DNA of 61,627 bases from an uncultured Planctomycetales bacterium (GCA_964354795.1 CAYHBB010000005.1:1-61627), one strand, 5' to 3'; shown: positions 7,403-59,688, counted from the stretch's first letter. Notes: a model not told the origin generated them from the sequence alone. Made by a program: numbers and translations.

Positions 7403-7451
7403 TTTTAGTTCTCCTTTTCCGCCTGAGAGGCGGAATCGGCATATTTAATGA

Positions 7452-11328: not shown

Positions 11329-12078
11329 TTATTTTCCTTCCAGCTTTTTCACTGCCTCTAACGCAATCGTAATCAGATTTGACTCCGCCATGTAATATAG
11401 GGGATTCATAAATCCCATCTCTCCAGTGATGACATTGTCGCTGATTGCCAGGATCGAGCCTGCCTTTATTTTGTAAGTCTGGGCGATAGTAAGCAGGGTC
11501 GAAGAGACCATGTCCACTACTTTTGCGCCTTCTTTGCGCTTGACTTCCACTATTTCGCGTGTCTCACGAAGAAGCGCGTCAGTGGTCCAAGCCACGCCGC
11601 GGTGCACATTCAGGCCCATGCTTTTTGCGATATCATACATGGTGTCGGAGATCTTTTTATCGGCAACTGTCTTGAAATCTTTATCCACGTAATACGGGGT
11701 GACCCCGTCGCCGCGGATTACTTCATCTACAATAAATAAATCTCCGACTTTAATAAACTCATCCAAAGAGCCCGCGGTGCCGATACGAATAATATTCTGG
11801 ATCTCGGCATTGCACATCACTTCCGCGGTGATGGCGGTGTCAGTAGAGAACCTTCCGCCGTTCATGGCCGTGATCTTGATGCCGTTGAACATGCCGGTGT
11901 ACATATTATACTCCATGAAAGAGAAGTTCTTCACGGGATTTTCTATTTTTTTCAAAAGCACATCCAGCCTGTCTTTTGGCCCTGGGACAATGGCGTATTT
12001 ACCCACATCCTGCGGCCTGAGCTGCACCATCTGCGTCAGGTCCTTACCCGTCATATGCACATCTTTTTGCATCTGCAT
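11329..12078 (-). CDS. PNP/UDP-family nucleoside phosphorylase (candidate MTA/5'-dA phosphorylase)
   Basis: RIGTAGSL motif and VDMVSST. The ATG at 12078 was chosen because AGGAGAG lies 6 nt upstream. The longer tracked ORF only translates the family B leader. Confidence 0.65.
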   Translation of the reverse strand: MQMQKDVHMTGKDLTQMVQLRPQDVGKYAIVPGPKDRLDVLLKKIENPVKNFSFMEYNMYTGMFNGIKITAMNGGRFSTDTAITAEVMCNAEIQNIIRIGTAGSLDEFIKVGDLFIVDEVIRGDGVTPYYVDKDFKTVADKKISDTMYDIAKSMGLNVHRGVAWTTDALLRETREIVEVKRKEGAKVVDMVSSTLLTIAQTYKIKAGSILAISDNVITGEMGFMNPLYYMAESNLITIALEAVKKLEGK

Positions 12079-12090
12079 GTTTACTCTCCT

Positions 12091-12133
12091 TTCACAGTAA
12101 GTGAAACACTGGCCTATCCTATAAGGCCAGGTG
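12091..12133 (-). promoter_or_regulatory. Family B leader element (hairpin 1 plus hairpin 2, abutting the SD)
   Basis: Minus-strand RNA: CACCTGGCCT-TATAGGAT-AGGCCAGTG, then TTTCAC-TTACT-GTGAAA, then GGAGAG. Confidence 0.7.
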
Positions 12134-12162
12134 TTAAAAATTCCTGTTTCTCGCGGGCTATA

Positions 12163-12253
12163 GTTAGCGGGCACCTGCCGAAGACAGGGTGGCTTGGCTT
12201 GTCCTGCGCGCGGCTTATGGCCGTGCTCGGATCAAGCCAAGCCACCCGCTAAC
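12163..12253. repeat. Family C inverted-repeat element, copy 1
   Basis: GTTAGCGGG...GGTGGCTTGGCTTG pairs with CAAGCCAAGCCACCCGCTAAC. A 60-nt core is identical to 59433-59492. Confidence 0.85.
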
Positions 12254-12262
12254 ATGCATTCC

Positions 12263-13174
12263 TCACGAAGTAAATATTCTATCTAAATTCCCGCCTAAAA
12301 TACTTTCTTTATCTTCTTCCGACACCTCTAAACTCCGCACCGCGTTAATCGAGCTAAGGATGTCCTTCTTTGCCGGCCAGTCGCTGCCCCACAATAAATG
12401 CTTTGGACCTAAGAGTTCCAGCGCGGCAAGAAAATTAGCCTTGCGGATATCTCCGCTGGTATCCACATATATATTCTTCAGGAAATCCGTCGGATTGCCT
12501 TTTAAATCTTTGACAAAATCGACCCCGCGAAGCATTTGATATGTCGCATCAAATCGATGAGACAGATTTGGGATGACTCCGCCAAAATACCCAAAGATAA
12601 ATTTCACGCTATAATCACGCAGGATATCCGACATCAGGAGTTTACCAATACAAATCGTGGTGTCGAAAACATACTCGATCACCGGGGTCAGAAGTGGATC
12701 CTGCACCCGCTCAAAACCTATAGGATTGACTATCTGCGAATGCACGAAAATAGGGATAGCCTTCTCCTGCGCCAGCTTATACAAGATAAGGAATCTTGAA
12801 TCTTCAAGATATATCCCGTTATAGCTTGTGGCCAGCGAAATCGCCCTGAATCCAAGCTCTTCGGTAGCGCGCTTAAACTCCCACAACATCTCTTCCTCGT
12901 TATCAATAGGTAAAACAGCTGCCCCGATAAAACGCGAAGGATGATCTTTCAATATTCTGGCGACGTTATTATTAAAGGCCTTTGCTACCGCGCCGTGGCC
13001 ACCAAGCTTTACAAAAGCGTCAGAAGTTGGATACGAAAGTACCGCCTGATCGATTCCGGCCTCATCCATTGCCTTAAGCTGTGCCTCGATCATGCCCCAA
13101 CCCTTATGGTAAAAATGGGCGTTGAGAATCACCTCTTCCGGCAGCCAGTGGCTGTGCGCGTCGATTATCTTCAT
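12263..13174 (-). CDS. Amidohydrolase-2 (ACMSD/decarboxylase-type TIM-barrel metal hydrolase)
   Basis: IIDAHSHW N-terminal His-x-His, GSDWP near the C-terminus. Confidence 0.7.
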   Translation of the reverse strand: MKIIDAHSHWLPEEVILNAHFYHKGWGMIEAQLKAMDEAGIDQAVLSYPTSDAFVKLGGHGAVAKAFNNNVARILKDHPSRFIGAAVLPIDNEEEMLWEFKRATEELGFRAISLATSYNGIYLEDSRFLILYKLAQEKAIPIFVHSQIVNPIGFERVQDPLLTPVIEYVFDTTICIGKLLMSDILRDYSVKFIFGYFGGVIPNLSHRFDATYQMLRGVDFVKDLKGNPTDFLKNIYVDTSGDIRKANFLAALELLGPKHLLWGSDWPAKKDILSSINAVRSLEVSEEDKESILGGNLDRIFTS

Positions 13175-13239
13175 TGTAGTAACCTTTTTATGAAATCCGC
13201 AATCCTTCTACAGTTCAAAAGATACCGCATACTTCATGG

Positions 13240-13638
13240 CTAAAGCTTTTGCTCCCGCTCTTGGAGGATGCGCCGAATCATCTCCTGCTCATAAAAAACT
13301 TCGATCTCTTCCAGGCCCTTCTTGCCAAACTCTTTCTCAATCGACTTCTCAATAGCCTGAAGCTTCAGCTGCAGGAAATAATATTCCGGCTTCAGCTCCT
13401 TACCTTCGTATTTGCGGCCCAAAGCATCCTTTTCTTTATTCTGGATATATACCTTGAATTCCTCAATATAATTTTTGGCGGCTCTGCTTGTATCAAATTT
13501 ACGCATCTGCTCCAAAATATACTGATCGATTTCAAGTTGGGTGAACTTACGATCTATCTTATCCAGAGATTCCCTGACCTGCTTATAAAACCAGATCAGG
13601 TATCGTTTTTTAAGGCTTTTGCTGTCTTGCTTCTTCAT
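13240..13638 (-). CDS. Hypothetical coiled-coil protein
   Basis: Lys/Glu-rich helical composition with no recognisable motif. It abuts the upstream gene (2-nt gap). Confidence 0.5.
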   Translation of the reverse strand: MKKQDSKSLKKRYLIWFYKQVRESLDKIDRKFTQLEIDQYILEQMRKFDTSRAAKNYIEEFKVYIQNKEKDALGRKYEGKELKPEYYFLQLKLQAIEKSIEKEFGKKGLEEIEVFYEQEMIRRILQEREQKL

Positions 13639-13639
13639 A

Positions 13640-14248
13640 TTATTTCTTCACCAATTCCACTGTGTCAAAGTAAAGCGTACCCTTGGATTCAGGTAAAGGC
13701 TCAAACTGGAACACTTTGATGGGGTAATCAATGTTACCGTTATTGTCGGAGTTCTGAGGCTGCCAGTCGGTACGCAGGACAAATTTATCAAAGCTGCAGA
13801 CGATCTGTTTCCATCCAGTGAAGTCGTCTACAACGATGAAGCGCCACAGCTCATTACCGTTATCCTTGATATCAAAAGCCACCTGTGCCTTAGAGTCAGT
13901 GCCATACATAAAAAAGGAGATTGCGCTATACTCTTCCCATTTGATATCCTCGGGGCTTATCTGCCAGCTGGCATTCTTAGCGTCAAGGGCAGAACCCTTA
14001 GCAATATACATATACCCACCCTTAACCGCATCATATACTACTTTGATCGACTGATTTCCGCTATTCTTCGTATTTTTATCTGCGGTAACTACCACTGATG
14101 AGCCGTTACCAGAGCCAAAATCAAAAGTACCCGCAGGGCCTCCGGAAACATCCACCTCAAAATCATCTACCAACAAATTGTCCGCGGCAAAACAGACTAA
14201 AAATGTTACAAGGACAAAACTTAGAACTAAAAATAACGGCTTTCTCAT
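13640..14248 (-). CDS. Secreted beta-rich protein (CBM/CIA30-like fold suspected)
   Basis: Signal peptide MRKPLFLVLSFVLVTFLVCFA. The family guess is weak. Confidence 0.4.
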   Translation of the reverse strand: MRKPLFLVLSFVLVTFLVCFAADNLLVDDFEVDVSGGPAGTFDFGSGNGSSVVVTADKNTKNSGNQSIKVVYDAVKGGYMYIAKGSALDAKNASWQISPEDIKWEEYSAISFFMYGTDSKAQVAFDIKDNGNELWRFIVVDDFTGWKQIVCSFDKFVLRTDWQPQNSDNNGNIDYPIKVFQFEPLPESKGTLYFDTVELVKK

Positions 14249-14267
14249 TCTTCCTCCTTAGTTGTTA

Positions 14268-14378
14268 GGTTATCAGTATATCGGAATATCAGTTGGCGGA
14301 ATATCAGGATAGCAGGTTTAGTTTTCTCTGATTCCCTGATATTCTGAACGCTGATTCTCTAATTCCCTGATAATCTGG
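14268..14378. repeat. Family D inverted-repeat element (TATCAG/CTGATA arms), copy 1
   Basis: The left arm carries repeated (A/T)ATCAG and the right arm repeated CTGAT(A/T). It is collinear with 39824-39928 (GGTTATCA..ATATCGG..ATATCAG....CTGATATTC...CTGATAATCTG). Confidence 0.8.
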
Positions 14379-14393
14379 CTTACATATTCTAAG

Positions 14394-15167
14394 CTACTTA
14401 TCCGGATGCTGTTGTTTAAAGGGAATCACCGGAGCCGTCCACGGCGTCTGCTGATTGATCACCGAGATCTCCAAAGGACAGACATTCTGCGGAACCGTAA
14501 GCGCGAATTTTACCGCATTTTCAATTGCCTCAGTAGTCATCAGACGCGATGTGTTAGAGGTAATCTCGCTTAGCTTCCCGGTTAAATCGGTATCCGTAAC
14601 TCCTGGCAAGATGGAAGTCACCTTTATTCCATGGTCGCGCAACTCCCAAAATAACCCCTTAGAAAAAGCGCGTAACCCCACCTTTAAAGAGCTATAAACA
14701 ATAAAATTCCTCGGAAGCGGATCGCACAAGGTCGAACCGGAAACCATGTTGATGATCGCTCCGGATTTGTTTTTGATCATATCGTTGATCACCAGCCGTA
14801 TCAAGCGCACATACCCCAGATAATTGGTATGCGCCAGCCTCTCAAAATCCTCAATGGGCTGCTCCTGAAACGGATATTGGGAAGATACCCCCGCATTATT
14901 GATCAGGATGTCTATCCTGCCGTATTTCTCCTTGGTTTTGTTGACCAAGTTCTCCAAATCCTCTAATTTTGTGACATCACAGACAACCGGCAAGACTTCG
15001 ACCTTATACTTTTTAGCGATCTCTTCCGCCGTTTCTTTAAGCGGACCTTCCTGGCGCGCAGCAATCACCAAATTTATCCCGAGGCCCGCAGCTGTGCATG
15101 CCAGAGCCTTACCGATCCCGCGGCTGGCACCGGTTATAATCGCTGTCTTTCCTTTTAAGTTTTCCAT
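14394..15167 (-). CDS. Short-chain dehydrogenase/reductase (candidate ketoreductase)
   Basis: TGASRGIG, NNAG, and the YSSLK catalytic Tyr-x3-Lys. Confidence 0.85.
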   Translation of the reverse strand: MENLKGKTAIITGASRGIGKALACTAAGLGINLVIAARQEGPLKETAEEIAKKYKVEVLPVVCDVTKLEDLENLVNKTKEKYGRIDILINNAGVSSQYPFQEQPIEDFERLAHTNYLGYVRLIRLVINDMIKNKSGAIINMVSGSTLCDPLPRNFIVYSSLKVGLRAFSKGLFWELRDHGIKVTSILPGVTDTDLTGKLSEITSNTSRLMTTEAIENAVKFALTVPQNVCPLEISVINQQTPWTAPVIPFKQQHPDK

Positions 15168-15197
15168 CTTTACCCCCTTAATTTGCCATTATTTTTC

Positions 15198-15264
15198 AGC
15201 TCTGCAAATACCCCGAAGCCTACGCATGAAATTCTTGAGGCAACCCACAAGAATTTCAAAGTGA
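15198..15264. repeat. Family E intercistronic element, copy 1 (hairpin B module)
   Basis: CCCCGAAGCCTACGCATGAAATTCTTG...CAAGAATTTCAAAGTGATTAGGCAAGGGGCAA. It shares TTAGGCAAGGGGCAA with 23707-23722. Confidence 0.7.
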
Positions 15265-16383
15265 TTAGGCAAGGGGCAACCTTTTACTTAAGAATAATAA
15301 CCCGATAAGACAAAATCCAAAAACCGTAAAGCCCAAAGCAAAACTTTGTTGCATAACTAATCCACCCAAAGCTACACCTAAGCCCCCGGAAATAAAACGC
15401 ACGCTGCTGTTAAGGCTAGCTGCCTCATTCAAATATTCCTTAGGCAAATCAGTCAATAACGTAGAGAGCCCGGCATGATTAAAGGTCCAACCCACCCCCC
15501 AGACAATCATTAATAACGCCAACACCAGAAATGGCGATTGCAACATCAATAAAGACACGCTGATTACCATCAAGACTATTCCGATATTAAGAGTTCTAAC
15601 CCTGCCCAGAGAATCGGAAAACTTTCCCCCGATTACCTCACCAAATACTCCACTTAAGCTAGTCAGCGTTATCAGCATGCTGATATAAAATTGCGAAAGA
15701 ACGAAACTTTTTGAAAAATACACTGCCAGCCACTGCTGCACCCCGTGATAAAACAGGCTGACCATAAATATATAGGTAAATACTATTAAGACGTTTTTGT
15801 TCTTAAGCGCCCGACCGTAATTTACCCTGAATCCGGTGGCATCTTGCTTAAAGCTGGGTAGGAATAAATACATCGCCAGCATCAAAATGAATCCGGCTAT
15901 TCCAGGGAGCAGGAAAATGAGGCGCCAATGGATGAAGCTGCTTAGCAGGAGCCCAAGTAAGGACGCTACAAATGTAGCGCCGAAAAAAAATCCTACATAC
16001 TCACCGCGTTTCTTAGGCTCAATATGCTCGCCGATCAAGATCAAGCCAAGAGGTATAACTGATGCGCCGAACACCCCCATCAGCACCCGCGCGGTAAAGA
16101 GCGCGCCGATATTCTGCGCTAGAGCCGCCAGAATATTCGCGCAGGAGAAAAAAAACAAACAAGCCAGCTCTACTTTCTTGGCATCATATGCCCGCACCAG
16201 TGGGCCGTAGAAAAGCGCGGATACTCCGTATGGCAGCATATAAAACCATACGATTTTACCTACTAAAAACTGAGAAAGAGCAAATTCTTTTGCAACCGAG
16301 GGAACCAAAGCCGCGGCTGCCGCTACGTTGAATGATAATACCGCGCTTTCAAGGCAAAGAATTATAAAAGTTAAATTGCTCAA
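15265..16383 (-). CDS. MFS transporter
   Basis: About 12 predicted TM segments. An MFS motif-A-type loop lies at GPLVRAYDAKKV. Confidence 0.75.
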   Translation of the reverse strand: MSNLTFIILCLESAVLSFNVAAAAALVPSVAKEFALSQFLVGKIVWFYMLPYGVSALFYGPLVRAYDAKKVELACLFFFSCANILAALAQNIGALFTARVLMGVFGASVIPLGLILIGEHIEPKKRGEYVGFFFGATFVASLLGLLLSSFIHWRLIFLLPGIAGFILMLAMYLFLPSFKQDATGFRVNYGRALKNKNVLIVFTYIFMVSLFYHGVQQWLAVYFSKSFVLSQFYISMLITLTSLSGVFGEVIGGKFSDSLGRVRTLNIGIVLMVISVSLLMLQSPFLVLALLMIVWGVGWTFNHAGLSTLLTDLPKEYLNEAASLNSSVRFISGGLGVALGGLVMQQSFALGFTVFGFCLIGLLFLSKRLPLA

Positions 16384-16384
16384 C

Positions 16385-16867
16385 TTATTTCTTTGCTTCC
16401 CGCTCTATGATCTCTTTAAATATCTTCAAATTATGCTGCGAGCCTTCGTTAATGAACCCTTCGATCTGGGTATCATTAAATTTAAAAGTTTTTTCCATTT
16501 CAAAATCTTGAATCCAAGTCAGCTTAACAGGACAGAAGTCCGTAGTTTGGCCTCCATTAGCCAAAGCCATACCTTCCTGGACAAGCGTATAAAGCCAGAT
16601 AATTTTCATGTACTTAAAAGGAAATACTGGCTCATGACGCTGAGCATAGGTAAAATATTTATCCTTGAATAGCAACCTCCAGGAAACCCAGGACTTATCG
16701 TCTTCGTCAGTCAGGCGGAAAGTGATCTTATTATCTTTCTTTTCTAAAACCTCTGCCTTCTTATATTCAGTGCCGAATAATTCTGTCCAGCGAGTAATGT
16801 CGTTAGAAATATCGAAAACTAGATCATAAGGCGCGTTAATGATTATAGAATTACATGTATGGCCCAT
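16385..16867 (-). CDS. SRPBCC-superfamily protein (polyketide aromatase/cyclase-like)
   Basis: N-terminal IIINAPYDLVFDISNDITRWTELF is typical of Polyketide_cyc2/TcmN-like proteins, and the size (160 aa) fits. Confidence 0.6.
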   Translation of the reverse strand: MGHTCNSIIINAPYDLVFDISNDITRWTELFGTEYKKAEVLEKKDNKITFRLTDEDDKSWVSWRLLFKDKYFTYAQRHEPVFPFKYMKIIWLYTLVQEGMALANGGQTTDFCPVKLTWIQDFEMEKTFKFNDTQIEGFINEGSQHNLKIFKEIIEREAKK

Positions 16868-16877
16868 ATTTTCTCCT

Positions 16878-17675
16878 TTATAAAATCGCCACTACTCGCG
16901 CCCAGGCAGCACCGGTTTGCCTGATGCGCACCGGAAAACAAATGATCTTAAATCCGGAATCCGGCAACTTTTCTAAATTAGCCAGACGCTCGATATGAAT
17001 AAATTCTCGTTTGCGGCCATAAAAATGCGCCGGGTAAAACTTTTTCGGATTTTTTTCCTCTAAAAACTCTTTAAGCATAAAACGGTACGGCCGATCAATA
17101 CCCATAGTATCTACGCCAAAAACCTTAATCCCCTTGTCCATAAGATAATCAATTGCCGAGACATCTATTCCGGGATAATCGGTGAAATACTTCGGTCCGC
17201 CGTAAAACTTATCCGCGCCTGTACGCAATAAAACTATATCCAAAGCTTTAAGTGTATAGCTGATTTTCTTTAAGGCCTCTTCTATATCTTGGGAGGTGAT
17301 GGACTCAGCCGGTTTTTTATGCGACATATCCAGCTTCACGCCGTCCTGATAACAATACTCTAGAGGGATCTCATCCGCGGTTTTTGAAGGCCGGCCCTCA
17401 GATTTTGTGCCATAATGGAAAGAGTAATCCAGGTGGGTGCCTACATGCACCGGCGCATGTACCACTTCAAGGGAAAGAAACTCTTCATCCGGCAGATCTT
17501 CTTTTCTTAAGATGCGTTTACCCAGAAGATACTGAATCCTGCCTTTTAAGGTCTTCCCCATGATCACCCGGTTGAATTTCTCCACCCCGGCGGCATGCGT
17601 TACCCGCTCGATTTGGACACGGTGGACCTCAAAAGCCTTTTCGTCTATGGGCAGGCTTAAATCTACTATCTTCAT
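16878..17675 (-). CDS. Cyclase-family protein (PF04199, kynurenine formamidase-like fold)
   Basis: HVGTHLDYSFH matches the HxGTHxDxPxH-type metal motif. Confidence 0.7.
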   Translation of the reverse strand: MKIVDLSLPIDEKAFEVHRVQIERVTHAAGVEKFNRVIMGKTLKGRIQYLLGKRILRKEDLPDEEFLSLEVVHAPVHVGTHLDYSFHYGTKSEGRPSKTADEIPLEYCYQDGVKLDMSHKKPAESITSQDIEEALKKISYTLKALDIVLLRTGADKFYGGPKYFTDYPGIDVSAIDYLMDKGIKVFGVDTMGIDRPYRFMLKEFLEEKNPKKFYPAHFYGRKREFIHIERLANLEKLPDSGFKIICFPVRIRQTGAAWARVVAIL

Positions 17676-17905
17676 TATTTTACCAGTTTTGACTGAATAA
17701 CTGCATCTATCTCATTGATGGTCGAGAACTTAGTGATCTCTTTAGGGCTAAACTTAGTGCCAAAAGCCTTTTCCAAAGCAATCACGGACTCAACCATCTC
17801 GGTTGAGTCAACGCCAATACTATCTTGCAGGCTGACATCGTCTTTTAATTCTTCAACCTTAACTTTCAGAAGATTACTCAACACTCCTTTGATCTTTTCT
17901 TTCAT
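17675..17905 (-). CDS. Acyl carrier protein
   Basis: 76 aa, acidic, with a GVDSTEM phosphopantetheine-attachment Ser motif. It shares one base with the start of the downstream cyclase gene. Confidence 0.8.
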   Translation of the reverse strand: MKEKIKGVLSNLLKVKVEELKDDVSLQDSIGVDSTEMVESVIALEKAFGTKFSPKEITKFSTINEIDAVIQSKLVK

Positions 17906-17973
17906 AAACGCCTCCTATAAATTTCCGCCTCATAAATGCCGCAAAGCTTTCTGGCGCTTCGCATCTAAAAACT

Positions 17974-19434
17974 TTAAATCAACACTTCTCCATTGACCGC
18001 TGCCGCTTCCCACTTGTTAAGGTTATCCAACTGGTCCTTGAAACACAGCTTGGCAAGCGGGTCGAAATTACTCTCCATGATGCGGTTGATGCGTCCGGGC
18101 TTGGAGAAGAATTCACGCATGCACCAGGAACCCAGACGACCAAGGTCTTCCGTAGTCAGATGATCAGTGGGGATGACCGGATGCAAGAAATCCCAGGTAG
18201 AGAAATCCACTTTCTTCGGATCGATCCAGCCTTTCTTAAGCGCAATCCTCCACATCGGAGAGTTCGGGGCAGGAGTAACGTAACCTAACCACAGAATATC
18301 CGGATCCACCGCGTCGCTATACTCAAAACGCTTCTTGATAATAGCTTCGGTATCATGGTCAAAACCCATCATGATATCCGCGACAATAGCAATATCGTTT
18401 TTACGCAGGATATCAATGGTCTTTTGTATCTGATCAAGAGTGGTGCCTTTAGCTATTTTCTTAAGCTCTGATTGGGTGGTCACCTCGATGCCGAAAACGC
18501 CCATAAACAAACCATTTTCTTTCATCAGGGGCAGGATGGATTCGCAATTGACCCAGTCAATGGCCCGTCCCAAAGACACCCATTTGATGGGATTATTAGA
18601 TGCTTTTTTAAGTTCACAGAACTTCTGCACCCTGGCAGGGTCGACATTAAAATTATCGTCCTGAATGACCACAACCTTAACTCCATACTTTTTGTGCAGA
18701 AGATTCAGTTCCTCCATCACCCTTTCCGGAGACTTAGCGCGCCACTTTAAAAAGTCTGAGGGGGAACGCGGATCAAATTGATCCCACTCATAGCAAAATG
18801 TACAAGCTGAGGGGCATCCGCGGGAAGTGACCATATCCACAAACGGCTTCCAATAGGTGTGGCCCACGTATTTATCCATCGGGAACAGGTCATACGCCGG
18901 CAAAGGAAGCTTATCCAGATCCTCCATGAGCGGCTTATGCGGCCCCATGATTATCTCGCTGCCTACGCGTGAGGTTACACCACCCACATCCTTAAGCGGC
19001 TTATTCTTATCTATGGCTTCGATCAGGTCTCCGAAAGACTCCTCTTCCCCCATGACCACAAAATCAACTGCTGGATTCTCTTCCAGCGTCGGCACAGGCA
19101 TGGCTGAATACCACAACCCGCCAAGCACTATCTTTGTCTTAGGCAGCGCTTTTTTAATTCCTGCTGCCGCATCTTTAAAGTGGCGCAAAACTCCATAGCC
19201 ACCATAGCCGTGCAGCTGCTCACCCATTACTACCACATCCGGCGCTTTTTCTTTTACTTTTTCAATAAGCTGGTCCATGGGGATCTGCTCAGCCCTGCCG
19301 TCTATGACCGACACATCCTCATATCCTCTTTCCCGCACATATGCGGCCCAGTGCGCATAAAGCTGATTTGGCGAGCGGTGTATTCCGTGTGATGCCCAGG
19401 CGCCGACTTTCGGCATTACAAAAAGAATCTTCAT
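17974..19434 (-). CDS. B12-binding-domain radical SAM enzyme (class B)
   Basis: N-terminal Rossmann-like B12 domain (KILFVMP..., VVVMGE), then TSRGCPSACTFC (CxxxCxxC). Confidence 0.8.
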   Translation of the reverse strand: MKILFVMPKVGAWASHGIHRSPNQLYAHWAAYVRERGYEDVSVIDGRAEQIPMDQLIEKVKEKAPDVVVMGEQLHGYGGYGVLRHFKDAAAGIKKALPKTKIVLGGLWYSAMPVPTLEENPAVDFVVMGEEESFGDLIEAIDKNKPLKDVGGVTSRVGSEIIMGPHKPLMEDLDKLPLPAYDLFPMDKYVGHTYWKPFVDMVTSRGCPSACTFCYEWDQFDPRSPSDFLKWRAKSPERVMEELNLLHKKYGVKVVVIQDDNFNVDPARVQKFCELKKASNNPIKWVSLGRAIDWVNCESILPLMKENGLFMGVFGIEVTTQSELKKIAKGTTLDQIQKTIDILRKNDIAIVADIMMGFDHDTEAIIKKRFEYSDAVDPDILWLGYVTPAPNSPMWRIALKKGWIDPKKVDFSTWDFLHPVIPTDHLTTEDLGRLGSWCMREFFSKPGRINRIMESNFDPLAKLCFKDQLDNLNKWEAAAVNGEVLI

Positions 19435-19445
19435 ATCCTACCTCC

Positions 19446-19489
19446 TTGCGCAGAAAGCGCAACACTGGCTTATCCTTTAAAGCCAGGTG
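19446..19489 (-). promoter_or_regulatory. Family B leader element (intercistronic, between CLF and the rSAM gene)
   Basis: Minus-strand RNA: CACCTGGCTT-TAAAGGAT-AAGCCAGTG, then TTGCGC-TTTCT-GCGCAA, then GGAGG, then 6 nt, then ATG. Confidence 0.75.
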
Positions 19490-19498
19490 CATTCATTA

Positions 19499-20728
19499 TT
19501 ATGCTTTTTCTACTACCAATACTGAATTTATCCCGCCTCTGCCGCGCGAAATGATCAGCGCTTTATTGATCTTATGCTCTCTGGCTTCCTTACCTACATA
19601 TAGCAGACCTTCTACAGCCGGGCTCTCCAGATTAATAGTCGGCGGAACCAAGCTGTGCTCCATGGCATGGATCGCAATGACCATATCTACAACTCCGCTG
19701 GCACCCAAAAGATTTCCAAACATGGACTTGGGGCAGCTTACAGGAATATCTTTTATGCGCGCGCCAAAGACGCTTCTTATGGCGTCAATCTCTGAATTAT
19801 CCCAGATATCTACAGCCAAACCATCCAAAGAAATGTAATCAATTTTATCGGGTGAAATCTTTGCCTCATCCAAAGCCATCCTGATCGCCCGGGCTAATTC
19901 TTTTCCGTCGCCAGCAGGATTGATCCTGTCCACTCCGTCGCAGGTAGTACCAAAACCGGTAATATACGCCAGGGATTTAGCGCTACGCGACTTGACACGA
20001 TCTAGGCCCTCCAACACTACGATTGCCGCGCCCTCACCTATTACAAAACCATTACGCTTTTTATCAAAAGGCCGGTAAGCTTCCTGTGGATGCGCGTTAT
20101 CTACAGAAAGCGCGCCATAGGTATTGCAGCATAATAAGGCATATGGCGTAACCGGCGCTTCCATGCCTCCGGCTAAGATCATGTTCAGCTTATTCTTTGC
20201 CAGAACTTTGCGCGCATAACCAAGGGCCATCAAAGAACTTGCCCGGTCAGATACAACTGTCTTAGAAAACCCCTTGATCCCGTAATAAATAGACACCTGG
20301 CCTTGAGGAGCAGCGGGAAACCAGGCAGAAGCCATGTAAGGAGAAACCCCCTCCCTGCCTTCCATGTACATATCACGCAATTCTGTCTCGGCATACAACC
20401 ATCCTCCAATAGCATTACCTAAAAATATACCCACTAGATTAGGGTCTTCTTTTTTAATATCGACCCCCGCATCCTGCAGAGCCAGCTCCGAGGCGATCAG
20501 AGCCATGTGCGAGAAAGCGTCGATCTTCTTCAAAAGCCTCTCAGAAATTGTAGAATACTTATCCAGGTCGTCGATTTGCCCCGCGATATGCGAAGGATAA
20601 AGGGATGCGTCAAAACGGGTGATCTCTTTGACAAAAGAGCGTCCGCTTTTAATATTCGCCCAGAACTGGCGTTTGCCTATTCCAGAGGGGGTGACTACGC
20701 CGACACCAGTGATTGCAATCTTGCTCAC
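19499..20728 (-). CDS. Ketosynthase beta / chain-length-factor-like subunit
   Basis: WFPAAPQGQVSIYYG is CLF-like. The active-site position reads VVSDRASS (no Cys, and Arg where CLFs carry Gln). There is no NAHG His motif. The GTG start overlaps the KS-alpha stop (GTGA). Confidence 0.75.
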   Translation of the reverse strand: MSKIAITGVGVVTPSGIGKRQFWANIKSGRSFVKEITRFDASLYPSHIAGQIDDLDKYSTISERLLKKIDAFSHMALIASELALQDAGVDIKKEDPNLVGIFLGNAIGGWLYAETELRDMYMEGREGVSPYMASAWFPAAPQGQVSIYYGIKGFSKTVVSDRASSLMALGYARKVLAKNKLNMILAGGMEAPVTPYALLCCNTYGALSVDNAHPQEAYRPFDKKRNGFVIGEGAAIVVLEGLDRVKSRSAKSLAYITGFGTTCDGVDRINPAGDGKELARAIRMALDEAKISPDKIDYISLDGLAVDIWDNSEIDAIRSVFGARIKDIPVSCPKSMFGNLLGASGVVDMVIAIHAMEHSLVPPTINLESPAVEGLLYVGKEAREHKINKALIISRGRGGINSVLVVEKA

Positions 20729-21984
20729 TCATATCTCCTTAATACTAACGAGGAATGGATCCCGGAAAAACCGCTGCTTGTTTTAAGAATAGTGTTTACT
20801 TTCTTGGCTCGCGCGACATTGGGGATATAATCCAGATCACACAATGGATCCTTTTCTTCCTGATTGATCGTGGGAGGAAGAATATTCTTCTCAAAGATCA
20901 TTGCGCATACCGTAAACTCTACCGCGTTCGCCGCGGCCAGAGGGTGACCAATCATGGATTTTAAGGAGCTGATCGGTAATTTATAGGCGTAATCTCCAAA
21001 AATCATTTTATAGGCATTAGTTTCAAAGATATCATTCATACGCGTAGATGAACCGTGGGCATTGATATATTCGATTTCCCTTGGCTTCATCCCCGCATCT
21101 TTCAAGGCCAGACTTATGCAATTAGCCATGGCTTGGCCATCCGCGGGAAGATCGGTCATATGAAAGGCATTACAGCTTGTGCCAAAACCAAGGACTTCCG
21201 CATAAATATGCGCACCGCGCTTTAAGGCGTGATTCAATTCTTCCAAAATCAAAATTCCTGCGCCCTCCGATAAAACAAAACCGTCACGCTTTTTGTCAAA
21301 TGGCCGCGATGCTTTTTCCGGCTCATCATTTCTTGCTGACAAAACACTCACTACATCAAACGCGCCAAAGGTAATGGGGGTAATAGGAGCCTCTGCCGCG
21401 CCACATACCATCACATCATGCTCGCCGTCCTGAATAGTCTCCATGCCAAAACCCATGGAATCTGTCCCGGCGGTGCAGCCTGTGGAAAGCGTGTCACAAA
21501 TACCTTTAAATCCGTACCTGGCGCTGATTTCAATGGACGGCGTGTTAAACATCGCCGCGTCATACAGATCCGGCCGCACTTTGCTGGGATCTATCGGCTT
21601 TTTGCCGTTATCAGTGACCAAAGCAAACTCCTCTTCCATATATTTTGTACCGCAAATAGCATTGGCCAAACACACACCGATACGTTCCGGATCTTCTTTG
21701 GAGAAATTCAGTCCGCTATCTTTTATGGCCATATCGCCTGCCACCACGCCAAACTGCACATACCTATCCATGCGCATGACCTCTTTATGAGTAAGGCCCA
21801 ATTTAAAAGGATCAAAATCCCGCACCTCGGCGGCGATCTTGGTGTTAAATATGGAAACATCAAAACCATCCACCAACTTGACTCCGGAGACTCCGCCCGA
21901 CATGCCTTTCCAGATGTTATCCTTGCCAATGCCGTTGGGAGCCACTACTCCTATGCCGGTGATCACTACACGTCTTTTTGACAT
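20725..21984 (-). CDS. Type II PKS ketosynthase alpha subunit
   Basis: LSTGCTAGTDS (catalytic Cys), SCNAFHMT and INAHGSST (His-His), SMIGHPLAAA. The ATG at 21984 was chosen because AAGGAG lies 9 nt upstream. Confidence 0.8.
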   Translation of the reverse strand: MSKRRVVITGIGVVAPNGIGKDNIWKGMSGGVSGVKLVDGFDVSIFNTKIAAEVRDFDPFKLGLTHKEVMRMDRYVQFGVVAGDMAIKDSGLNFSKEDPERIGVCLANAICGTKYMEEEFALVTDNGKKPIDPSKVRPDLYDAAMFNTPSIEISARYGFKGICDTLSTGCTAGTDSMGFGMETIQDGEHDVMVCGAAEAPITPITFGAFDVVSVLSARNDEPEKASRPFDKKRDGFVLSEGAGILILEELNHALKRGAHIYAEVLGFGTSCNAFHMTDLPADGQAMANCISLALKDAGMKPREIEYINAHGSSTRMNDIFETNAYKMIFGDYAYKLPISSLKSMIGHPLAAANAVEFTVCAMIFEKNILPPTINQEEKDPLCDLDYIPNVARAKKVNTILKTSSGFSGIHSSLVLRRYE

Positions 21985-22001
21985 CAGATAATTCTCCTTG
22001 A

Positions 22002-22592
22002 TCATTCTTCCACTCTCTTGACTTTAAAAACAATATTTCCTCCGTCAGGGCAAGTGACGGTATCGATAGAGTCAGGGTCCGGCATAAAGAAAAACTTCGC
22101 TCCGAAATTAAGCGCGAACAGCGCCGGAAACGCGGTATGGAATGCCGCACCGCAGAAACCCGGAATACATTTTAACCCCTGCGTCTCCCACTTATCCCCC
22201 ACCTTATAACCAAAGGTACATTTGCCTTTTGCCTGCACTACTTCAATGACCATTTTTTTCGGATTCGGACCCTTGAAATTCGCATCCTTTGGGATCACCT
22301 GGACCAAGCCGCCCTTATCCAAAATCTCCGCTTTAAACTCTAATTTTCCTCCGTCAGGGCAAGTCACTAAAAGCGAGCGCTGATTATCGCGAAAAGGAAA
22401 ACAGGCCCCGAAACTTAAAGCATAGATCAACGGAAACAAAGCATGGGCCAAACCTAAACAAAAATGCTTAGGCGGATGAGTGAAATCCTCAAGAATTATC
22501 TCATCGCCGATCTCATAGCCGTGATAACAAAGGCCAAATACTCCGGTTACAGTGAGTTTTAATTTCGGAAAAGGGGTATTTACTTCGCCCAT
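22002..22592 (-). CDS. Tandem-duplicated TIGR04076-like protein (two CPDGG modules)
   Basis: Two ~95-aa halves, ending VTCPDGGKLEFKAE and VTCPDGGNIVFKVKR. Each has a GDE/GDK...FC...F(P)xxxAL core. The family name is recalled from memory. Confidence 0.5.
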   Translation of the reverse strand: MGEVNTPFPKLKLTVTGVFGLCYHGYEIGDEIILEDFTHPPKHFCLGLAHALFPLIYALSFGACFPFRDNQRSLLVTCPDGGKLEFKAEILDKGGLVQVIPKDANFKGPNPKKMVIEVVQAKGKCTFGYKVGDKWETQGLKCIPGFCGAAFHTAFPALFALNFGAKFFFMPDPDSIDTVTCPDGGNIVFKVKRVEE

Positions 22593-22593
22593 A

Positions 22594-23595
22594 TTAATAT
22601 AATCCTTTCGTATTATCCAGAAGCTCCTGCTTAGAGAAAAATTTACCGGCAGGCTCTACCTGATGCACCATTCTAACCAGTTTTTCATTTAAAGGAGCGC
22701 TGACGTTATTCTTCTTGGCCAAAGCCACAAATTCTCCGTTTATATAATCTATCTCGCTGGCCTTGCCTCTTTTGATGCTCTGCAGAATCGAGCCGTACAT
22801 CGGCTCGCGGCTAAGACTAGTCATGATTCCGGAGAATATTTTCGCTGCTTCTGGCAGGCTAAGCGCAGCGAGCTTAATCACCCTTTCCAGAGGAAAATCC
22901 GGAAGTGAAGATAAATTGACCCCTGCCTTCTCTACAACAGTTAAGCCCTCTTTCCAAATAGCCACACTTACGGCGCAGATATCAGTATCAGAAAAAGCTT
23001 CCTGCATACTTACGCCCAATATCGCCGGAATACAGTTGTTGGAATTTACAAAAACCTTCAAATATTTCATCCCCAGAATATCCTCGCTGACTATTGTGGG
23101 AAAAATAGTATTAAGAACGTGGCTTACCTTGACCACTGAATCGTCATTCCTGCCAAAGGCCTTGCCGATGATCCAGCTTTTGTCAAAGTTGTGCACAATC
23201 TCACCGGGCTTTAGATAAGTAGATCCAAACATCACGATGCTGGAGATGATCTTCTCTTTTGGGATAAACTCGGCAGCAATGCTATCTGCCTGCAAGCCGT
23301 TTTGAGTGGTAAGGACAAGCGCGTCGCGGATAAAATCTATATTGGCTTTAAGCGCGCTCTCTAAATCCTGGGTCTTGGTGGCTAAAATCACTAAATCTAC
23401 TTTCTCGCTTAAAGTCTCGCAAACCGGCAGGCTGATATCCAGCTCTCCGCGCACCCCGGAGATCTTTAATCCGTCGGCCTTAATAGCTTTAACCGCATCC
23501 TGCCTGCCGACCAAAACTACATCATTGCCTTTAAGTTTTAGATATCCAGCGACCAGTCCGCCAATGGCCCCTGCACCGATAACCGCAATTTTCAT
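22594..23595 (-). CDS. ApbA/PanE-family 2-dehydropantoate reductase-like oxidoreductase
   Basis: MKIAVIGAGAIGG Rossmann start, about 330 aa, with a C-terminal KPR-type helical domain. Confidence 0.7.
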   Translation of the reverse strand: MKIAVIGAGAIGGLVAGYLKLKGNDVVLVGRQDAVKAIKADGLKISGVRGELDISLPVCETLSEKVDLVILATKTQDLESALKANIDFIRDALVLTTQNGLQADSIAAEFIPKEKIISSIVMFGSTYLKPGEIVHNFDKSWIIGKAFGRNDDSVVKVSHVLNTIFPTIVSEDILGMKYLKVFVNSNNCIPAILGVSMQEAFSDTDICAVSVAIWKEGLTVVEKAGVNLSSLPDFPLERVIKLAALSLPEAAKIFSGIMTSLSREPMYGSILQSIKRGKASEIDYINGEFVALAKKNNVSAPLNEKLVRMVHQVEPAGKFFSKQELLDNTKGLY

Positions 23596-23606
23596 TTAAT
23601 GAGCGC

Positions 23607-23722
23607 ATAACTTACGGAGCACTCGTTTTGCTCGCTGCGACGTAAGTTATTTGCGCGAATTAACCCCGCAGCCTGCCACAAAAATATCGAAGAGATTTTT
23701 GGGGCGCTTAGGCAAGGGGCAA
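23607..23722. repeat. Family E intercistronic element, copy 2 (hairpin A, linker and hairpin B)
   Basis: ATAACTTACG...CGTAAGTTAT, GCGCGAATTAACCCCGC, CAAAAATaTC..GAtTTTTGG, CTTAGGCAAGGGGCAAG. It is collinear with 25681-25789. Confidence 0.8.
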
Positions 23723-23737
23723 GACTATACATAATTA

Positions 23738-24007
23738 TTATTTCTTTGCGTTTTTAGGATACCCATACTTCTTATAATCAAATCCAGTCTGCTCCAGGAG
23801 GCGGATCATCATGCTGTAAAACGGAGAAGGCACATCGGAGAAAAAAGCCGCTACCACATCCTGCTCCTGAACCTGATTTGAATTTCTGCCTTTGGCTAAC
23901 TCCTGAGCTACTTTAGTCACCGCCACCTCGGTAATGTGGCGGTGAAACACCGGTATCTTAGCGATAAAAACCCTGAACCTCTCTTTGACTTCCGGATTCC
24001 AATCCAT
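23738..24007 (-). CDS. Small PCP-reductase-domain-like protein
   Basis: WNPEVKERFRVFIAKIPVFHRHITEVAV resembles the W..EA...L..IP.F.R pattern of PF08369. The ATG at 24007 was chosen because GGAGAG lies upstream. Confidence 0.4.
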   Translation of the reverse strand: MDWNPEVKERFRVFIAKIPVFHRHITEVAVTKVAQELAKGRNSNQVQEQDVVAAFFSDVPSPFYSMMIRLLEQTGFDYKKYGYPKNAKK

Positions 24008-24021
24008 ATCTAGAGCTCTCC

Positions 24022-24065
24022 TTACGCAGAAAGCGTAACACTGGCCCATCCTTTAGGGCCAGGTG
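24022..24065 (-). promoter_or_regulatory. Family B leader element (first gene of the PKS-like operon)
   Basis: Minus-strand RNA: CACCTGGCCC-TAAAGGAT-GGGCCAGTG, then TTACGC-TTTCT-GCGTAA, then GGAGAG. Confidence 0.75.
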
Positions 24066-24085
24066 AAATCTTAGTTTAATTTAAT

Positions 24086-24101
24086 TAGTAAAATTTTACT
24101 A
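24086..24101. promoter_or_regulatory. Perfect 16-bp palindrome (candidate operator)
   Basis: TAGTAAAATTTTACTA lies immediately downstream of the -10 box of the minus-strand promoter. Confidence 0.5.
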
Positions 24102-24102
24102 T

Positions 24103-24130
24103 ATTATAGGCTTAAAACTCCCCCTGTCAA
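24103..24130 (-). promoter_or_regulatory. Near-consensus sigma70 promoter of the PKS-like operon
   Basis: On the minus strand: TTGACA (24130-24125), a 16-nt spacer, then TATAAT (24108-24103). Confidence 0.65.
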
Positions 24131-24201
24131 GAAAAACCTGAGGTTTTTACAAGAAGAAATCTTACGTATTCACAATGAGTTATGTATTCAAAGAAGGGTT
24201 T

Positions 24202-24723
24202 CTAGACGGACTTGATCAGGTCGATGAGGAAATCCGACTCTGCCTGCACCTGACGCCTGTTATGCTCCAGAATGCGGGCAAGGGAAGAAGGCTTTTTTTT
24301 GGACTGCTCTTTGATCATCTGCTCAAGGCCTTTAGAGACCCTGTTAAGGATAGAAAGCCTGGCGCGCATCCTGCGCTTGGCTACCGCAGGTTTCATGAAG
24401 TGCAGGAAATAAAGGCTTAAATCCAGGCTGAATTGTGGCCGCTTAAAATTAAGAAAACTTTTGTTAAGCAAATCGTCAAAGTAGGATTCGCCCTTGGGGG
24501 TGAGCTCATAAACAATGCGTTCGGGCCGGTTGCCGGGCTTGGTGGTACGTTTGATCACCAAACCGTCTCTTTCCAGGACCTGCAAAGGATAATATATGGA
24601 CTTTAAATCTACACCGGCAAATAAAGAAAGTATTTCTTTGATCTTGCGCTTGATATCGTAGCCGTGCTTGGGGCTTTCCTTAAGTAAACCTAATAACAGC
24701 AATTCTTTTTCGATCATGCGCAC
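24202..24723 (-). CDS. PadR-family transcriptional regulator
   Basis: [21 protein letters not shown]... and [13 protein letters not shown] form the winged-helix core, with a long C-terminal helical domain. Confidence 0.8.
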
Positions 24724-27763: not shown

Positions 27764-27884
27764 GTTAGCCCCTGCGCTTAGCACCTTGGCATAAATGGCA
27801 CCTTTGCCTATAGGAGGGCAAAGTACGCCTCTTGCGAGGCGTTGCCTAGTGCGCCCCTTCTGGGGCGGAAAGGCGCGGGGCTAC
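27764..27884 (+). ncRNA. Family B nested multi-hairpin element (long form) upstream of comM
   Basis: GCACCTTGGCA...TTGCCTAGTGC encloses CTTTGCC-tatagga-GGGCAAAG and ACGCCTC-ttgc-GAGGCGT, followed by GCGCCCC-ttct-GGGGCG. The outer stem is GCCCCTGCGC/GCGCGGGGC. It is about 85 percent collinear with the reverse complement of 34714-34828. Confidence 0.7.
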
Positions 27885-27939
27885 ACTTTTTGTGTTAGAT
27901 TTTGCCACCCCTTACGTCTATTATAGTAGGAGGTGTTAA

Positions 27940-32636: not shown

Positions 32637-32652
32637 CGTGTTCCTCCTTTTA

Positions 32653-32723
32653 CACTGGCTTATCCGTGCCCACAAGGCACGCACTTGGCAATCCATTATG
32701 CCAAGGTGCTATAAAGCCAGGTG
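32653..32723 (-). promoter_or_regulatory. Family B leader element, once-nested form
   Basis: Minus-strand RNA: CACCTGGCTTTATAG[CACCTTGGCA-TAATGGAT-TGCCAAGTG][CGTGCC-TTGT-GGGCACG]GATAAGCCAGTG, then AAAAGGAGG. Confidence 0.7.
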
Positions 32724-32747
32724 TTATTGATTCTACAAGGTTATCCC

Positions 32748-34713: not shown

Positions 34714-34828
34714 CTGCTGGCCTATCCTGCCCAGAAGGGGCGCACTTGGCAATTGCCTCACAAGAGGCATACTTTGCCATCAAATAGGCAAAGGTACCTT
34801 TTATGCCAAGGTGCTTTAAGGCCAGGTG
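34714..34828 (-). ncRNA. Family B nested multi-hairpin element (long form)
   Basis: Minus-strand RNA: CACCTGGCC TTAAAG [CACCTTGGCATAAAAGG[TACCTTTGCC..GGCAAAGTA][TGCCTC-TTGT-GAGGCA]ATTGCCAAGTG][CGCCCC-TTCT-GGGCAG] GATAGGCCAG, then the SD. Confidence 0.7.
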
Positions 34829-34880
34829 TATCTTTTAATAATTATAAACCAAATCGCCCTTTATTCAAGCAAATTTATCT

Positions 34881-42611: not shown

Positions 42612-42890
42612 GGCAAGACTCCTTTCGCAGAAAGCGAAACACCAACCTTTCCTATAAGGTTGGGTGTTACAGTAAGCTACGCCCTATAAAGCCAGGTGTA
42701 AGCAGTAAGCAAAACACCAACTTTTCCTATAAAGTTGGGTGTTGCAGTAAACTACACCCCAGCTATAAGGTATGCTGGGTGTGTCCTTTTTAGGACTACA
42801 CCCCAGCTATAAGGTATGCTGGGTGTGTCCTTTTTAGGACAAAACACCGGCCTTTCCTATAAAGCCAGGTGTTTGCTTTAAAGGTAAGAG
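42612..42890 (-). ncRNA. Long structured leader of the EF-G2-like gene (array of family B hairpins)
   Basis: Hairpins lie at 42623-42639, 42639-42667, 42714-42742, 42844-42872 and in the two units at 42752-42839. Three have AGGA in the loop in the mRNA sense. Confidence 0.6.
42752..42839. repeat. Exact 44-nt direct tandem duplication (two hairpins per unit)
   Basis: CTACACCCCAGCTATAAGGTATGCTGGGTGTGTCCTTTTTAGGA occurs at 42752-42795 and again at 42796-42839. Confidence 0.95.
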
Positions 42891-42898
42891 GAAGCCTT

Positions 42899-42927
42899 AT
42901 TATATAATACCTGTATGGGAGGGTCAA
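42899..42927 (-). promoter_or_regulatory. Consensus-like sigma70 promoter for the EF-G2-like gene
   Basis: On the minus strand: TTGACC (42927-42922), a 17-nt spacer, then TATAAT (42904-42899). Confidence 0.65.
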
Positions 42928-43028
42928 GGCTAAATTGGCGTACACCCGGCCTTATGGGAAAGGCCGGTGTGTGGTCCAGAAAGGACACACCCGCTGAACC
43001 TTTAAAGCGGGGTGTAGCTTTCTGCCAC

Positions 43029-43072
43029 AAAAAAGCGCGAAACCCTCAAGGCTTTCCTTTAGAGTTTCGCGC
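43029..43072 (-). terminator. Rho-independent terminator of the kamA / ATP-grasp operon
   Basis: Minus-strand RNA: GCGCGAAAC, a 20-nt loop, GTTTCGCGC, then TTTTTTGTGG. It lies 15 nt after the stop codon. Confidence 0.75.
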
Positions 43073-59405: not shown

Positions 59406-59417
59406 ATTTGTCTATTG

Positions 59418-59493
59418 TTTAGCGGGTCCTGCCTTGGCTTGTCCTGCGCGCGGCTTATGGCCGTGCTCGGATCAAGCCAAGCCACCCGCTAAA
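59418..59493. repeat. Family C inverted-repeat element, copy 2
   Basis: TTTAGCGGGT..CTTGGCTTG pairs with CAAGCCAAG..ACCCGCTAAA. The core is identical to the copy at 12193-12252. Confidence 0.85.
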
Positions 59494-59518
59494 CCTACCA
59501 TTTATCAGCAAGCTTGTT

Positions 59519-59688
59519 GTTAGCGGCTGACTTGGACTGATTTCGAGCGGGGCGTCCGAGGACCGAGCGGGCATGGATCACCCGCTATCACTTGCAGGTG
59601 AGAGCGAGGTCCGCAGGCCGAGCGAAGTTTTGCCTCGCAGGGGCAAAACGAGCGCCCCCGCGAGAAACAGGCCAAGGCAGACGCTAAC
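59519..59688. ncRNA. Family C-related 170-nt multi-hairpin element closed by GTTAGCG/CGCTAAC
   Basis: Closing stem GTTAGCGGCTGACTTGG / CCAAGGCAGACGCTAAC. Inner hairpins are GAGCGGG-catggatc-ACCCGCT and GTTTTGCC-tcgcag-GGGCAAAAC. A TTTCGAGCGGGGCG / CGCCCCCGCGAGAAA pairing is also present. Confidence 0.5.

Follow-up and report, generated by a model that had tools for sequence, protein, structure and literature searches.

The window analyzed here is a 61,627-nucleotide stretch of DNA from an uncultured Planctomycetales bacterium (GCA_964354795.1 CAYHBB010000005.1:1-61627). It carries two tRNA genes at its left end (75-147 on the minus strand and 357-439 on the plus strand) and, at 11329-24723, a type II PKS-like gene cluster, which comprises genes for PadR, a small protein, an ApbA/PanE-like reductase, KS-alpha, KS-beta, a B12-radical-SAM enzyme, a cyclase, an MFS transporter, an SDR, an amidohydrolase, and PNP_UDP_1 and is ~75–87% conserved in other Omnitrophota (L025, L049, L054, and L087). 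An exact look-up of the B12-radical-SAM protein returned no record. Because the window is 85–91% identical to contigs of Candidatus Omnitrophota bacterium LacPavin_0920_SED3_MAG_45_14 (JAPLLR01), it comes from a close relative of that bacterium.

Between the stop codon of the KS-beta (CLF) gene and the B12-radical-SAM gene lies a unit of ~43–45 nt, which consists of hairpin 1 (H1) followed by hairpin 2 (H2) and recurs elsewhere in the window. Its consensus in mRNA sense is (A)CACC-[6-7 bp]-TAWAGGAW-[6-7 bp]-GGTG-T-[5-6 bp]-TTTCT/TTACT-[5-6 bp]-AGGAG-N7-10-ATG. H1 has a foot of 3–4 bp, (A)CAC/GTG(T), an invariant bulged C (the second C), and a loop of 8 or 6 nt, and H2 has a stem of 5–6 bp and a TTTCT or TTACT loop, after which AAGGAG(G) follows. 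Two covariance models were used, R1 for H1 alone and R2 for H1 plus H2. The copies and the sites associated with them, including promoter-like sites that are sigma70-like matches, are as follows.

19446-19490, minus strand: full unit (H1, 19462-19490; H2, 19447-19461; 68.9 bits with R2) separating the stop codon of KS-beta (CLF) from the B12-radical-SAM gene of the type II PKS-like cluster
19432-19447, minus strand: AAGGAGG Shine-Dalgarno (SD) sequence directly adjoining the 3' end of H2, with a 6-nt spacer and the radical-SAM ATG
12090-12134, minus strand: full unit preceding the PNP_UDP_1 phosphorylase gene (SD to ATG, 12076-12091)
24022-24066, minus strand: full unit preceding an 89-aa gene (SD to ATG, 24005-24023)
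42623-42667, minus strand: full unit abutting the SD of a 651-aa EF-G-like GTPase gene (SD to ATG, 42609-42624)
42667-43015, mixed strands: array of five to seven additional units, including one on the plus strand
42667-42698, minus strand: truncated array unit
42698-42742, minus strand: array unit
42751-42838, in the array: two identical 44-nt tandem units and an inverted H1-like hairpin
42832-42872, minus strand: array unit
42942-42980, plus strand: array unit
42972-43015, minus strand: array unit
32652-32724, minus strand: nested copy, in which the outer H1 loop is split between TATAG and GAT by a complete inner unit (H1b and H2b)
34714-34829, minus strand: three-level nested copy, with an outer H1, a middle unit of the CACCTTGGCA type, and an inner unit of the TTTGCC type
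27769-27898, plus strand: three-level nested copy with an H2-like hairpin, in sense orientation upstream of a Mg-chelatase/ComM-like gene (ATG 27940)
7417-7435, minus strand: solo H2-like hairpin TTCCGCC-TCTCA-GGCGGAA, flush with AAGGAG (gene start 7402)
24130-24103, 42927-42899, 34868-34841, and 32758-32730: promoter-like sites upstream of units

Members of the family occur at ~8 of the ~56 gene starts of the window. The H1-only IUPAC pattern has six matches there against 0.00 expected, and the covariance-model E-values of the window copies range from 1e-9 to 1e-17. A sequence-only reading of this DNA had listed four minus-strand copies; all four are present at their places and align without gaps from CACC through GGAG. 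Beyond that listing, the window also holds the array at 42667-43015 and the nested copies at 32652-32724, 34714-34829, and 27769-27898. The simpler arrangement of a hairpin followed by an SD that it had mentioned does exist, at 7417-7435 instead of 7424-7442, and judged by its sequence this hairpin looks like a solo H2.

The unit at 42623-42667 is the last member of an array that spans 42623-43015 and is divided by the promoter-like site at 42927-42899, and the part downstream of this site would form a leader of ~260 nt for the EF-G-like gene. This region (40656-43072) holds the 651-aa EF-G/Tet-like GTPase gene with its repeat-built leader, and the intrinsic terminator of the upstream lysine-2,3-aminomutase-like gene is located at 43028-43072. 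Within the array, the composite at 42751-42838, which includes a perfect 44-nt tandem duplication, resembles a REPIN-like doublet, and its arrangement of H1, GTCCTAAAAAGGAC, and an inverted H1-like hairpin recurs in L019, L030, L067, L090, and L093. As for the nested copies, the one at 32652-32724 begins ~6 nt past a -10 box and ends 5 nt short of AGGAGG (gene start 32636), the one at 34714-34829 is flanked by the promoter-like site at 34868-34841 and the SD of a DUF4870 gene (ATG 34696), and the one at 27769-27898 precedes the only large plus-strand gene in that region.

A second repeat family is present in the window: a GC-rich segment of ~270 nt at 59404-59688 forms the leader of an RNase_T+WYL gene, and a 63-nt piece of it is found at 12190-12252, just 5' of the unit at 12091-12134. 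Copies that are 86–96% identical to this segment, several of which adjoin H1 units, occur in L013 (two), L033, L067, and L069, and no Rfam family matched it. Two near-identical segments of ~150 nt around a unit in the JAFGET01 MAG (L002, 2409-2463, and L096, 4472-4526) may reflect either duplication of a small RNA or a composite repeat of larger size.

Compensatory changes preserve the two-hairpin structure

The two-hairpin structure proposed from the sequence was borne out, and RNAfold reproduced both hairpins, with z-scores of -1.9 to -3.5. In an alignment of 149 copies (144 distinct rows), 96.3% of the stem cells pair, in comparison with 74% after column shuffles and at most 39% with slid partners; 14 of the 15 pairs have changes on both sides, and double changes are found in 441 cells against 101 expected, figures that lean towards structure in that the alignment was fitted to the covariance model. 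A hand-picked ungapped subset gave the same pairing picture. The stem variants noted earlier were correct and compensatory, and changes of this kind preserve the pairing of H1 as well as of H2. Almost no variation is seen in the foot CAC/GTG, the bulged C, or the loop core GGA. The constancy of GGA, also noted earlier, extends to copies that were found without requiring it, in which the loop reads, for example, TATCGGAT, TATTGGAT, or TAGTGGAT. In the model-fitted alignment, G-U outnumbers A-C in the stems (34 vs. 14); this excess fits a hairpin of the sense strand, is compatible with either RNA or single-stranded DNA, and is only suggestive.

Several assignments were considered and rejected. 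The 3' foot of the unit, GGTGTTSCGC or GGTGTGCGC, differs from the R' box GTTRRRY of an integron attC site, the neighbors are housekeeping genes, and no integrase is present in the window. The unit lacks the sequence features of a terminator or an RNase III site. Loop–loop kissing between H1 and H2 was also rejected, because the loops do not covary and TATAGGA loops occur together with TTTCT loops. At the gathering threshold, Rfam 15 detected only the two tRNAs in the window and no family that matches the unit; on the array, the best hit had an E-value of 0.35, far under gathering.

Distribution of the unit across Omnitrophota

A scan with the H1-only pattern, in which each bacterial and archaeal species was represented by a single genome, yielded at least 100 matching stretches. 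Among the matches listed, 94 of 100 stretches fall in 46 Omnitrophota-type assemblies, and the unit is therefore present in at least 46 species genomes; these assemblies are either labelled Omnitrophota/Omnitrophica or are unclassified or 'Planctomycetales' bins that have genes in common with them. The remaining six stretches (Sphingomonadales) represent an in-frame acyl-CoA-synthetase motif and were discarded as a chance match. A pattern scan of viral contigs gave 0 matches.

All related sequence, designated by L-numbered loci, consists of 8-kb stretches of MAGs that were chosen for their H1 content, and in 0.71 Mb of these stretches R2 finds 149 units. As the collection scan used H1 alone, the sequence 3' of H1 is unbiased. 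The stem types are genome-specific, as exemplified by TTCATTATCTATGAA in all five MHHD01 copies, which indicates copy-paste or concerted evolution.

The unit docks on SD sequences in one orientation

At least 51 of the 102 non-coding H1 matches are followed by an SD at +13 to +18, an ATG at +23 to +32, and then an ORF. With R2, 63–67 of the 149 units (~45%) abut an SD within 0–2 nt, the SD starting at -2 to 0 from the end of the unit, and the ATG lies 9–13 nt further on; the start codon is ATG in 62 of 63 SD-abutting units. The fixed placement against the SD that had been proposed earlier is in agreement with these data. A unit faces a gene start in reverse orientation in only one of 149 cases. 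The 3' side of the unit is anchored and its 5' side is free, as an upstream ORF ends within 45 nt in only 19 of 51 copies. Of the SD-abutting copies, 26 of 66 begin flush with the upstream stop codon. Every one of the 149 R2 copies is located outside ORFs, and occurrence both inside operons, as at the CLF-rSAM junction, and at operon starts was confirmed. Fourteen units are directly followed by another unit, and the arrays are mostly head-to-tail with occasional inverted members.

Units are also found in and beside other RNA elements. FMN riboswitch aptamers in at least eight Omnitrophota carry the unit, in all cases antisense and in the P3 terminal loop (e.g., L079, 1687-1895, and L026, 7475-7722), and the L026 aptamer holds a second antisense unit. 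The L079 aptamer has an extra 45-nt insert in another loop. The 580-nt RNase P RNA of L034 (6056-6650) contains H1-like inserts in both orientations, and ~8 further copies are antisense to the flanking genes, beside bidirectional terminators. The proteins encoded downstream of the units are heterogeneous (SMC, lumazine synthase, ClpP, PurE, S11, epimerases, PilZ): 53 of them match 97 Pfam families, and no family is represented in more than three proteins.

The sequence-only reading preferred a selected regulatory RNA of the CsrA type. On this hypothesis, a CsrA dimer would bridge two GGA motifs, one in the H1 loop and the other in the SD, and repress a large regulon, the array being a possible sponge. 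A spacing of ~30 nt between loop and SD falls in the range for dual-site CsrA binding, and a TAWNGGAW loop with an SD ~30 nt downstream is present in 63–67 copies. This geometry, the strict orientation relative to the SD, and the conservation of GGA above the rest of the loop, even where it is not forced, all speak for CsrA. However, conservation does not extend to the A at -2 of the ANGGA motif, and the downstream genes are functionally unrelated. Most copies are in sense orientation, yet ~20 run against the local direction of transcription, either within FMN riboswitches or next to terminators. Copies whose loop presentation is destroyed by nesting persist nevertheless, orthologous junctions are both filled and empty even between ~90% identical genomes (see below), and the predicted accessibility of the SD is unaltered by the unit. 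A tblastn search with an approximate csrA query found none in the 0.77 Mb of window and loci, well under 1% of the genomes concerned and thus too small a sample to be informative. We regard a CsrA/RsmA target as very improbable, and the evidence failed to support this reading of the locus. More generally, a cis-regulatory leader or riboswitch is characterized by retention at orthologs together with a coherent gene function, whereas we found patchy presence and mixed Pfam families; the unit is not a gene-specific riboregulator or leader.

Filled and empty sites, nesting, and the target rule

At least six orthologous junctions differ in the presence or absence of the unit. The site at the gene starting at 16867 is empty in the window, where GATTTTATAA is directly followed by AGGAGAAAATATG (in a shorter form, TTTTATAA by AGGAGAAAATATG), and is filled in the L025 ortholog, which reads AATTTTATAA, the unit from CACC to TGCGCTTTCTGCGCA, and AGGAGGGGAAAATG (in short, TTTTATAA, the unit from CACC to GCGCA, and AGGAGG); the same site is filled in L087 and empty in L049. 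The window is filled at 32652-32729, and the orthologous site in L004, the genome of which is ~90% identical, is empty and reads TTGTATAAT-ATAACCATAAAAAGGAGG. At the CLF-rSAM junction, where the window has the 19446 copy, a unit is present in L049 as well; L025 (GAGAAAGGAGAAAATTAATG) and L054 lack it. The unit is absent from the leader of the 89-aa gene (24007 gene) in L025, L049, and L054, as well as from the leader of the PNP_UDP_1 gene ortholog in L087, and at one riboflavin-operon junction it is present in two of 11 genomes. The copies may also differ in complexity: the EF-G-like gene ortholog in L052 has a single unit where the window has the array, L004 has two tandem simple units at the site of the nested copy 34714-34829, and the L054 ortholog has a simple unit at the site of 27769-27898. 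Within one conserved gene cluster, the unit is found at different junctions in different genomes.

The empty sites already hold the SD and the spacer, and the unit is inserted exactly 5' of AGGAG. The idea that the unit carries the SD with it was rejected, because empty sites have the same SD and spacer. No target-site duplication was found at the compared filled and empty pairs (TTTTATAA joined to AGGAG at the empty site; TTTTATAA, the unit, and AGGAG at the filled site), and there are no terminal inverted repeats, as the end CACC... has no inverted counterpart in the other end, ...GCGCA.

A complete unit is located inside the H1 loop of another unit at three sites in the window, at two sites in L051, and in L063 and L090, and a shorter hairpin is inserted in an H1 loop in L020. 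TAWA(G) and G(G)AT flank the inner unit, which in all cases has the orientation of the outer one. There are up to three levels of nesting, and RNAfold predicts multibranch 'Russian-doll' folds for these copies. The insertion point in the loop, TAWA^GGAT, and that at the SD, TAA^AGGAG, share an A/T-rich 5' side and GGA on the 3' side, and therefore one target rule covers SD docking, nesting, and tandem arrays. Exceptions to this rule are the copies in FMN loops, which have ACCGCC on the 3' side, and those adjacent to terminators, which have an A-run. The unit is a strand-specific insertion flush 5' of a pre-existing GGA purine tract, in most cases the SD of a gene and occasionally the loop GGA of a copy already in place, and docking 5' of GGA tracts leads to tandem arrays and nested copies.

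At some orthologous sites (L025/L087 and L051/L090), the unit is kept with compensatory differences, which indicates that the integrity of the hairpins was constrained after insertion.

Transcription and accessibility of the SD

Of the five best sigma70-like matches within 19 kb, four are located 5–36 nt upstream of units, among them the perfect promoter-like site at 24130-24103, 36 nt downstream of which lies the unit at 24022-24066. Given this proximity, the sequence suggests that the units would be 5'-terminal or nearly so in primary transcripts. At 24086-24130, a perfect 16-nt palindrome, TAGTAAAATTTTACTA, comes after the perfect sigma70-like promoter (TTGACA-16-TATAAT); the palindrome is kept ahead of the same small gene in L025, L049, and L054 and is probably the operator of the adjacent PadR regulator.

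A 5'-proximal position in the transcript, deduced from the 0–36 nt that separate units from predicted promoters, would suit a dedicated host RNA signal, in which H1 is the site of an Omnitrophota-specific RNA-binding protein or endoribonuclease that punctuates operons. Such a factor would give each cistron a protected 5' end, and the repeat would have spread because it is useful, its mobility being secondary. Invariance of the foot, bulge, and loop together with a fixed distance is typical of hairpins recognized by proteins, and a host RNA-binding factor would explain their conservation throughout the phylum equally well; the 26 of 66 SD-abutting copies that are flush with an upstream stop codon and the orthologous sites kept across species with compensatory changes also point in this direction. 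However, the same facts suit recognition by a mobilizing enzyme that acts at the DNA level, antisense copies, nested copies, and patchy orthologous presence speak against a required signal, and no candidate protein was identified. We consider a host signal of this kind, taken as the whole explanation, unlikely; it is possible that a dedicated RNA-binding protein or nuclease acts on a unit of mobile origin, with which it is compatible.

The exact abutment of H2 on the SD raises the question of a translational device, i.e., a ribosome standby site, an SD insulator, or a two-state switch in which the H2 loop CUUUCU pairs with AGGAG and hides the SD. From the sequence, CUUUCU would be able to pair with AGGAG via G-U wobbles, and in two window copies the predicted ensemble partly sequesters the SD (unpaired probability of 0.26 and 0.37). 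On the other hand, in-silico deletion of the unit takes the mean predicted unpaired probability of the SD from 0.59 to 0.60, and we rejected the view that the unit frees or hides the SD because it has no net effect on predicted accessibility. The H2 loops are alike in SD-abutting and non-SD copies, and variants that are unable to pair with AGGAG, such as TTGT(G), are common; a role of the H2 loop as an anti-SD or a target guide was rejected on these grounds. H1-H2 loop–loop covariation is absent as well. We regard a translational device as very improbable, and the ribosome standby site that had been listed among the alternatives in the sequence-only reading was not supported by SD accessibility or by the comparison of H2 loops.

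Origin and spread of the unit

Another of those alternatives, a REP/BIME-like selfish palindrome, turned out to be the best fit, given the filled and empty junctions, the nesting, and the antisense copies. In our assessment, the unit is a copy of a REP/MITE-like interspersed insertional palindromic repeat that pervades Omnitrophota and docks on GGA purine tracts, with a probability of roughly 0.65. Such a repeat might be spread by a hairpin-recognizing single-strand DNA enzyme of the HUH/Y1 type or, alternatively, by template switching driven by microhomology, in which case the common junction would be the near-universal AAGGAGG. After insertion, the unit would be transcribed as a 5'-terminal or intercistronic part of the mRNA and would be near-neutral for translation, given that the predicted accessibility of the SD is preserved. 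As a side benefit, the 5' or intercistronic stem-loop might block exonucleases and insulate the ribosome-binding site.

To identify a mobilizing gene, tblastn was run with approximate queries for IS200 TnpA, IS608 TnpA, and E. coli RAYT, and no significant match was found in the 0.77 Mb of window and loci, a sample too small for a missing transposase or csrA to count as absence. Clustering of the ORFs across the loci detected no recurrent partner other than the riboflavin-operon genes that accompany the FMN riboswitch copies.

A bolder extension, which we put forward only tentatively and regard as rather doubtful, is that the unit represents an undescribed class of mobile DNA that reads the SD purine tract on one strand and installs itself phylum-wide as a portable 5' leader, partly domesticated by the host as a stabilizing or insulating leader with a dedicated factor. 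If SD docking is an active choice of target, it would constitute a new integration specificity, and the unit would be a natural transposable 5'-UTR module of relevance to mRNA stability, operon punctuation, and synthetic RBS insulators.

The unit has consequences for how such elements are read. Covariation and a fixed position adjacent to the SD do not by themselves prove a regulatory RNA, since a mobile palindrome yields both. The repeat is a phylum-wide marker for Omnitrophota, a large uncultured lineage, and it will affect assembly, gene calling, and ncRNA annotation, the latter through FMN riboswitches and RNase P RNA that carry inserts.

Comparison with known repeats

A literature search on repeats and leaders of Omnitrophota found no description of the unit among the papers covered, and we could not find described its one-orientation, SD-flush docking, its recursive insertion into its own loop, or a comparable phylum-wide distribution. 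REP families are defined by a GTAG or CGTC tetranucleotide tag at one end of the palindrome (PMC3733652). This tag is absent from the consensus of the unit, which ends in (A)CACC and GGTG(T).

The REP/BIME/REPIN elements of Proteobacteria, which are mobilized by the Y1 enzyme RAYT, share many traits with the unit: they are short, high-copy, imperfect, bulged palindromes in intergenic or intercistronic positions, form clusters with inverted copies (only occasional in the arrays of the unit), are co-transcribed with genes, as predicted for the unit, and exhibit genome-specific types and presence/absence polymorphism. Unlike REPs, the unit consists of two different hairpins, has a CACC/GGTG foot instead of GTAG/CGTC, and nests in its own loop; it is located mostly 5' of genes, flush with the SD and in one orientation, whereas REPs are mostly 3' of genes. 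Its host belongs to a PVC-group phylum, and no RAYT was identified. MITEs such as the Correia elements of Neisseria are likewise small non-autonomous insertions in leaders and between genes with filled and empty sites, and they can alter transcripts; the unit differs from them in having neither terminal inverted repeats nor a target-site duplication and in being only ~44 nt long. Rickettsia palindromic elements (RPEs) resemble the unit in being tolerated in functional genes including RNA genes, here the FMN riboswitch and RNase P RNA, but are 100–150 bp in size, are often in frame in protein-coding genes, and do not dock on the SD. MIRUs are, like the unit, orientation-specific, located in intercistronic gaps of operons, and adjoin stop and start signals; however, they are tandem minisatellites of 40–100 bp with small ORFs rather than hairpin pairs, and nesting is not described for them.

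Similarity is also seen to the ends of the IS200/IS605 family and to palindrome-associated transposable elements, which have subterminal imperfect hairpins and insert strand-specifically without duplication. The two hairpins of the unit, by contrast, are unrelated in sequence, its target is on the sense 3' side, and TnpA was not found. CsrA/RsmA sites and 5' stabilizer stem-loops such as the ompA leader have in common with the unit a GGA in the loop plus a GGA in the SD and a hairpin at or near the 5' end of the mRNA, but these are single-copy and gene-specific, in contrast to an insertional repeat with antisense and nested members. Lacking their defining marks (the tag, terminal inverted repeats, and target-site duplication), the unit nonetheless behaves like REP/BIME elements, MITEs, and RPEs.
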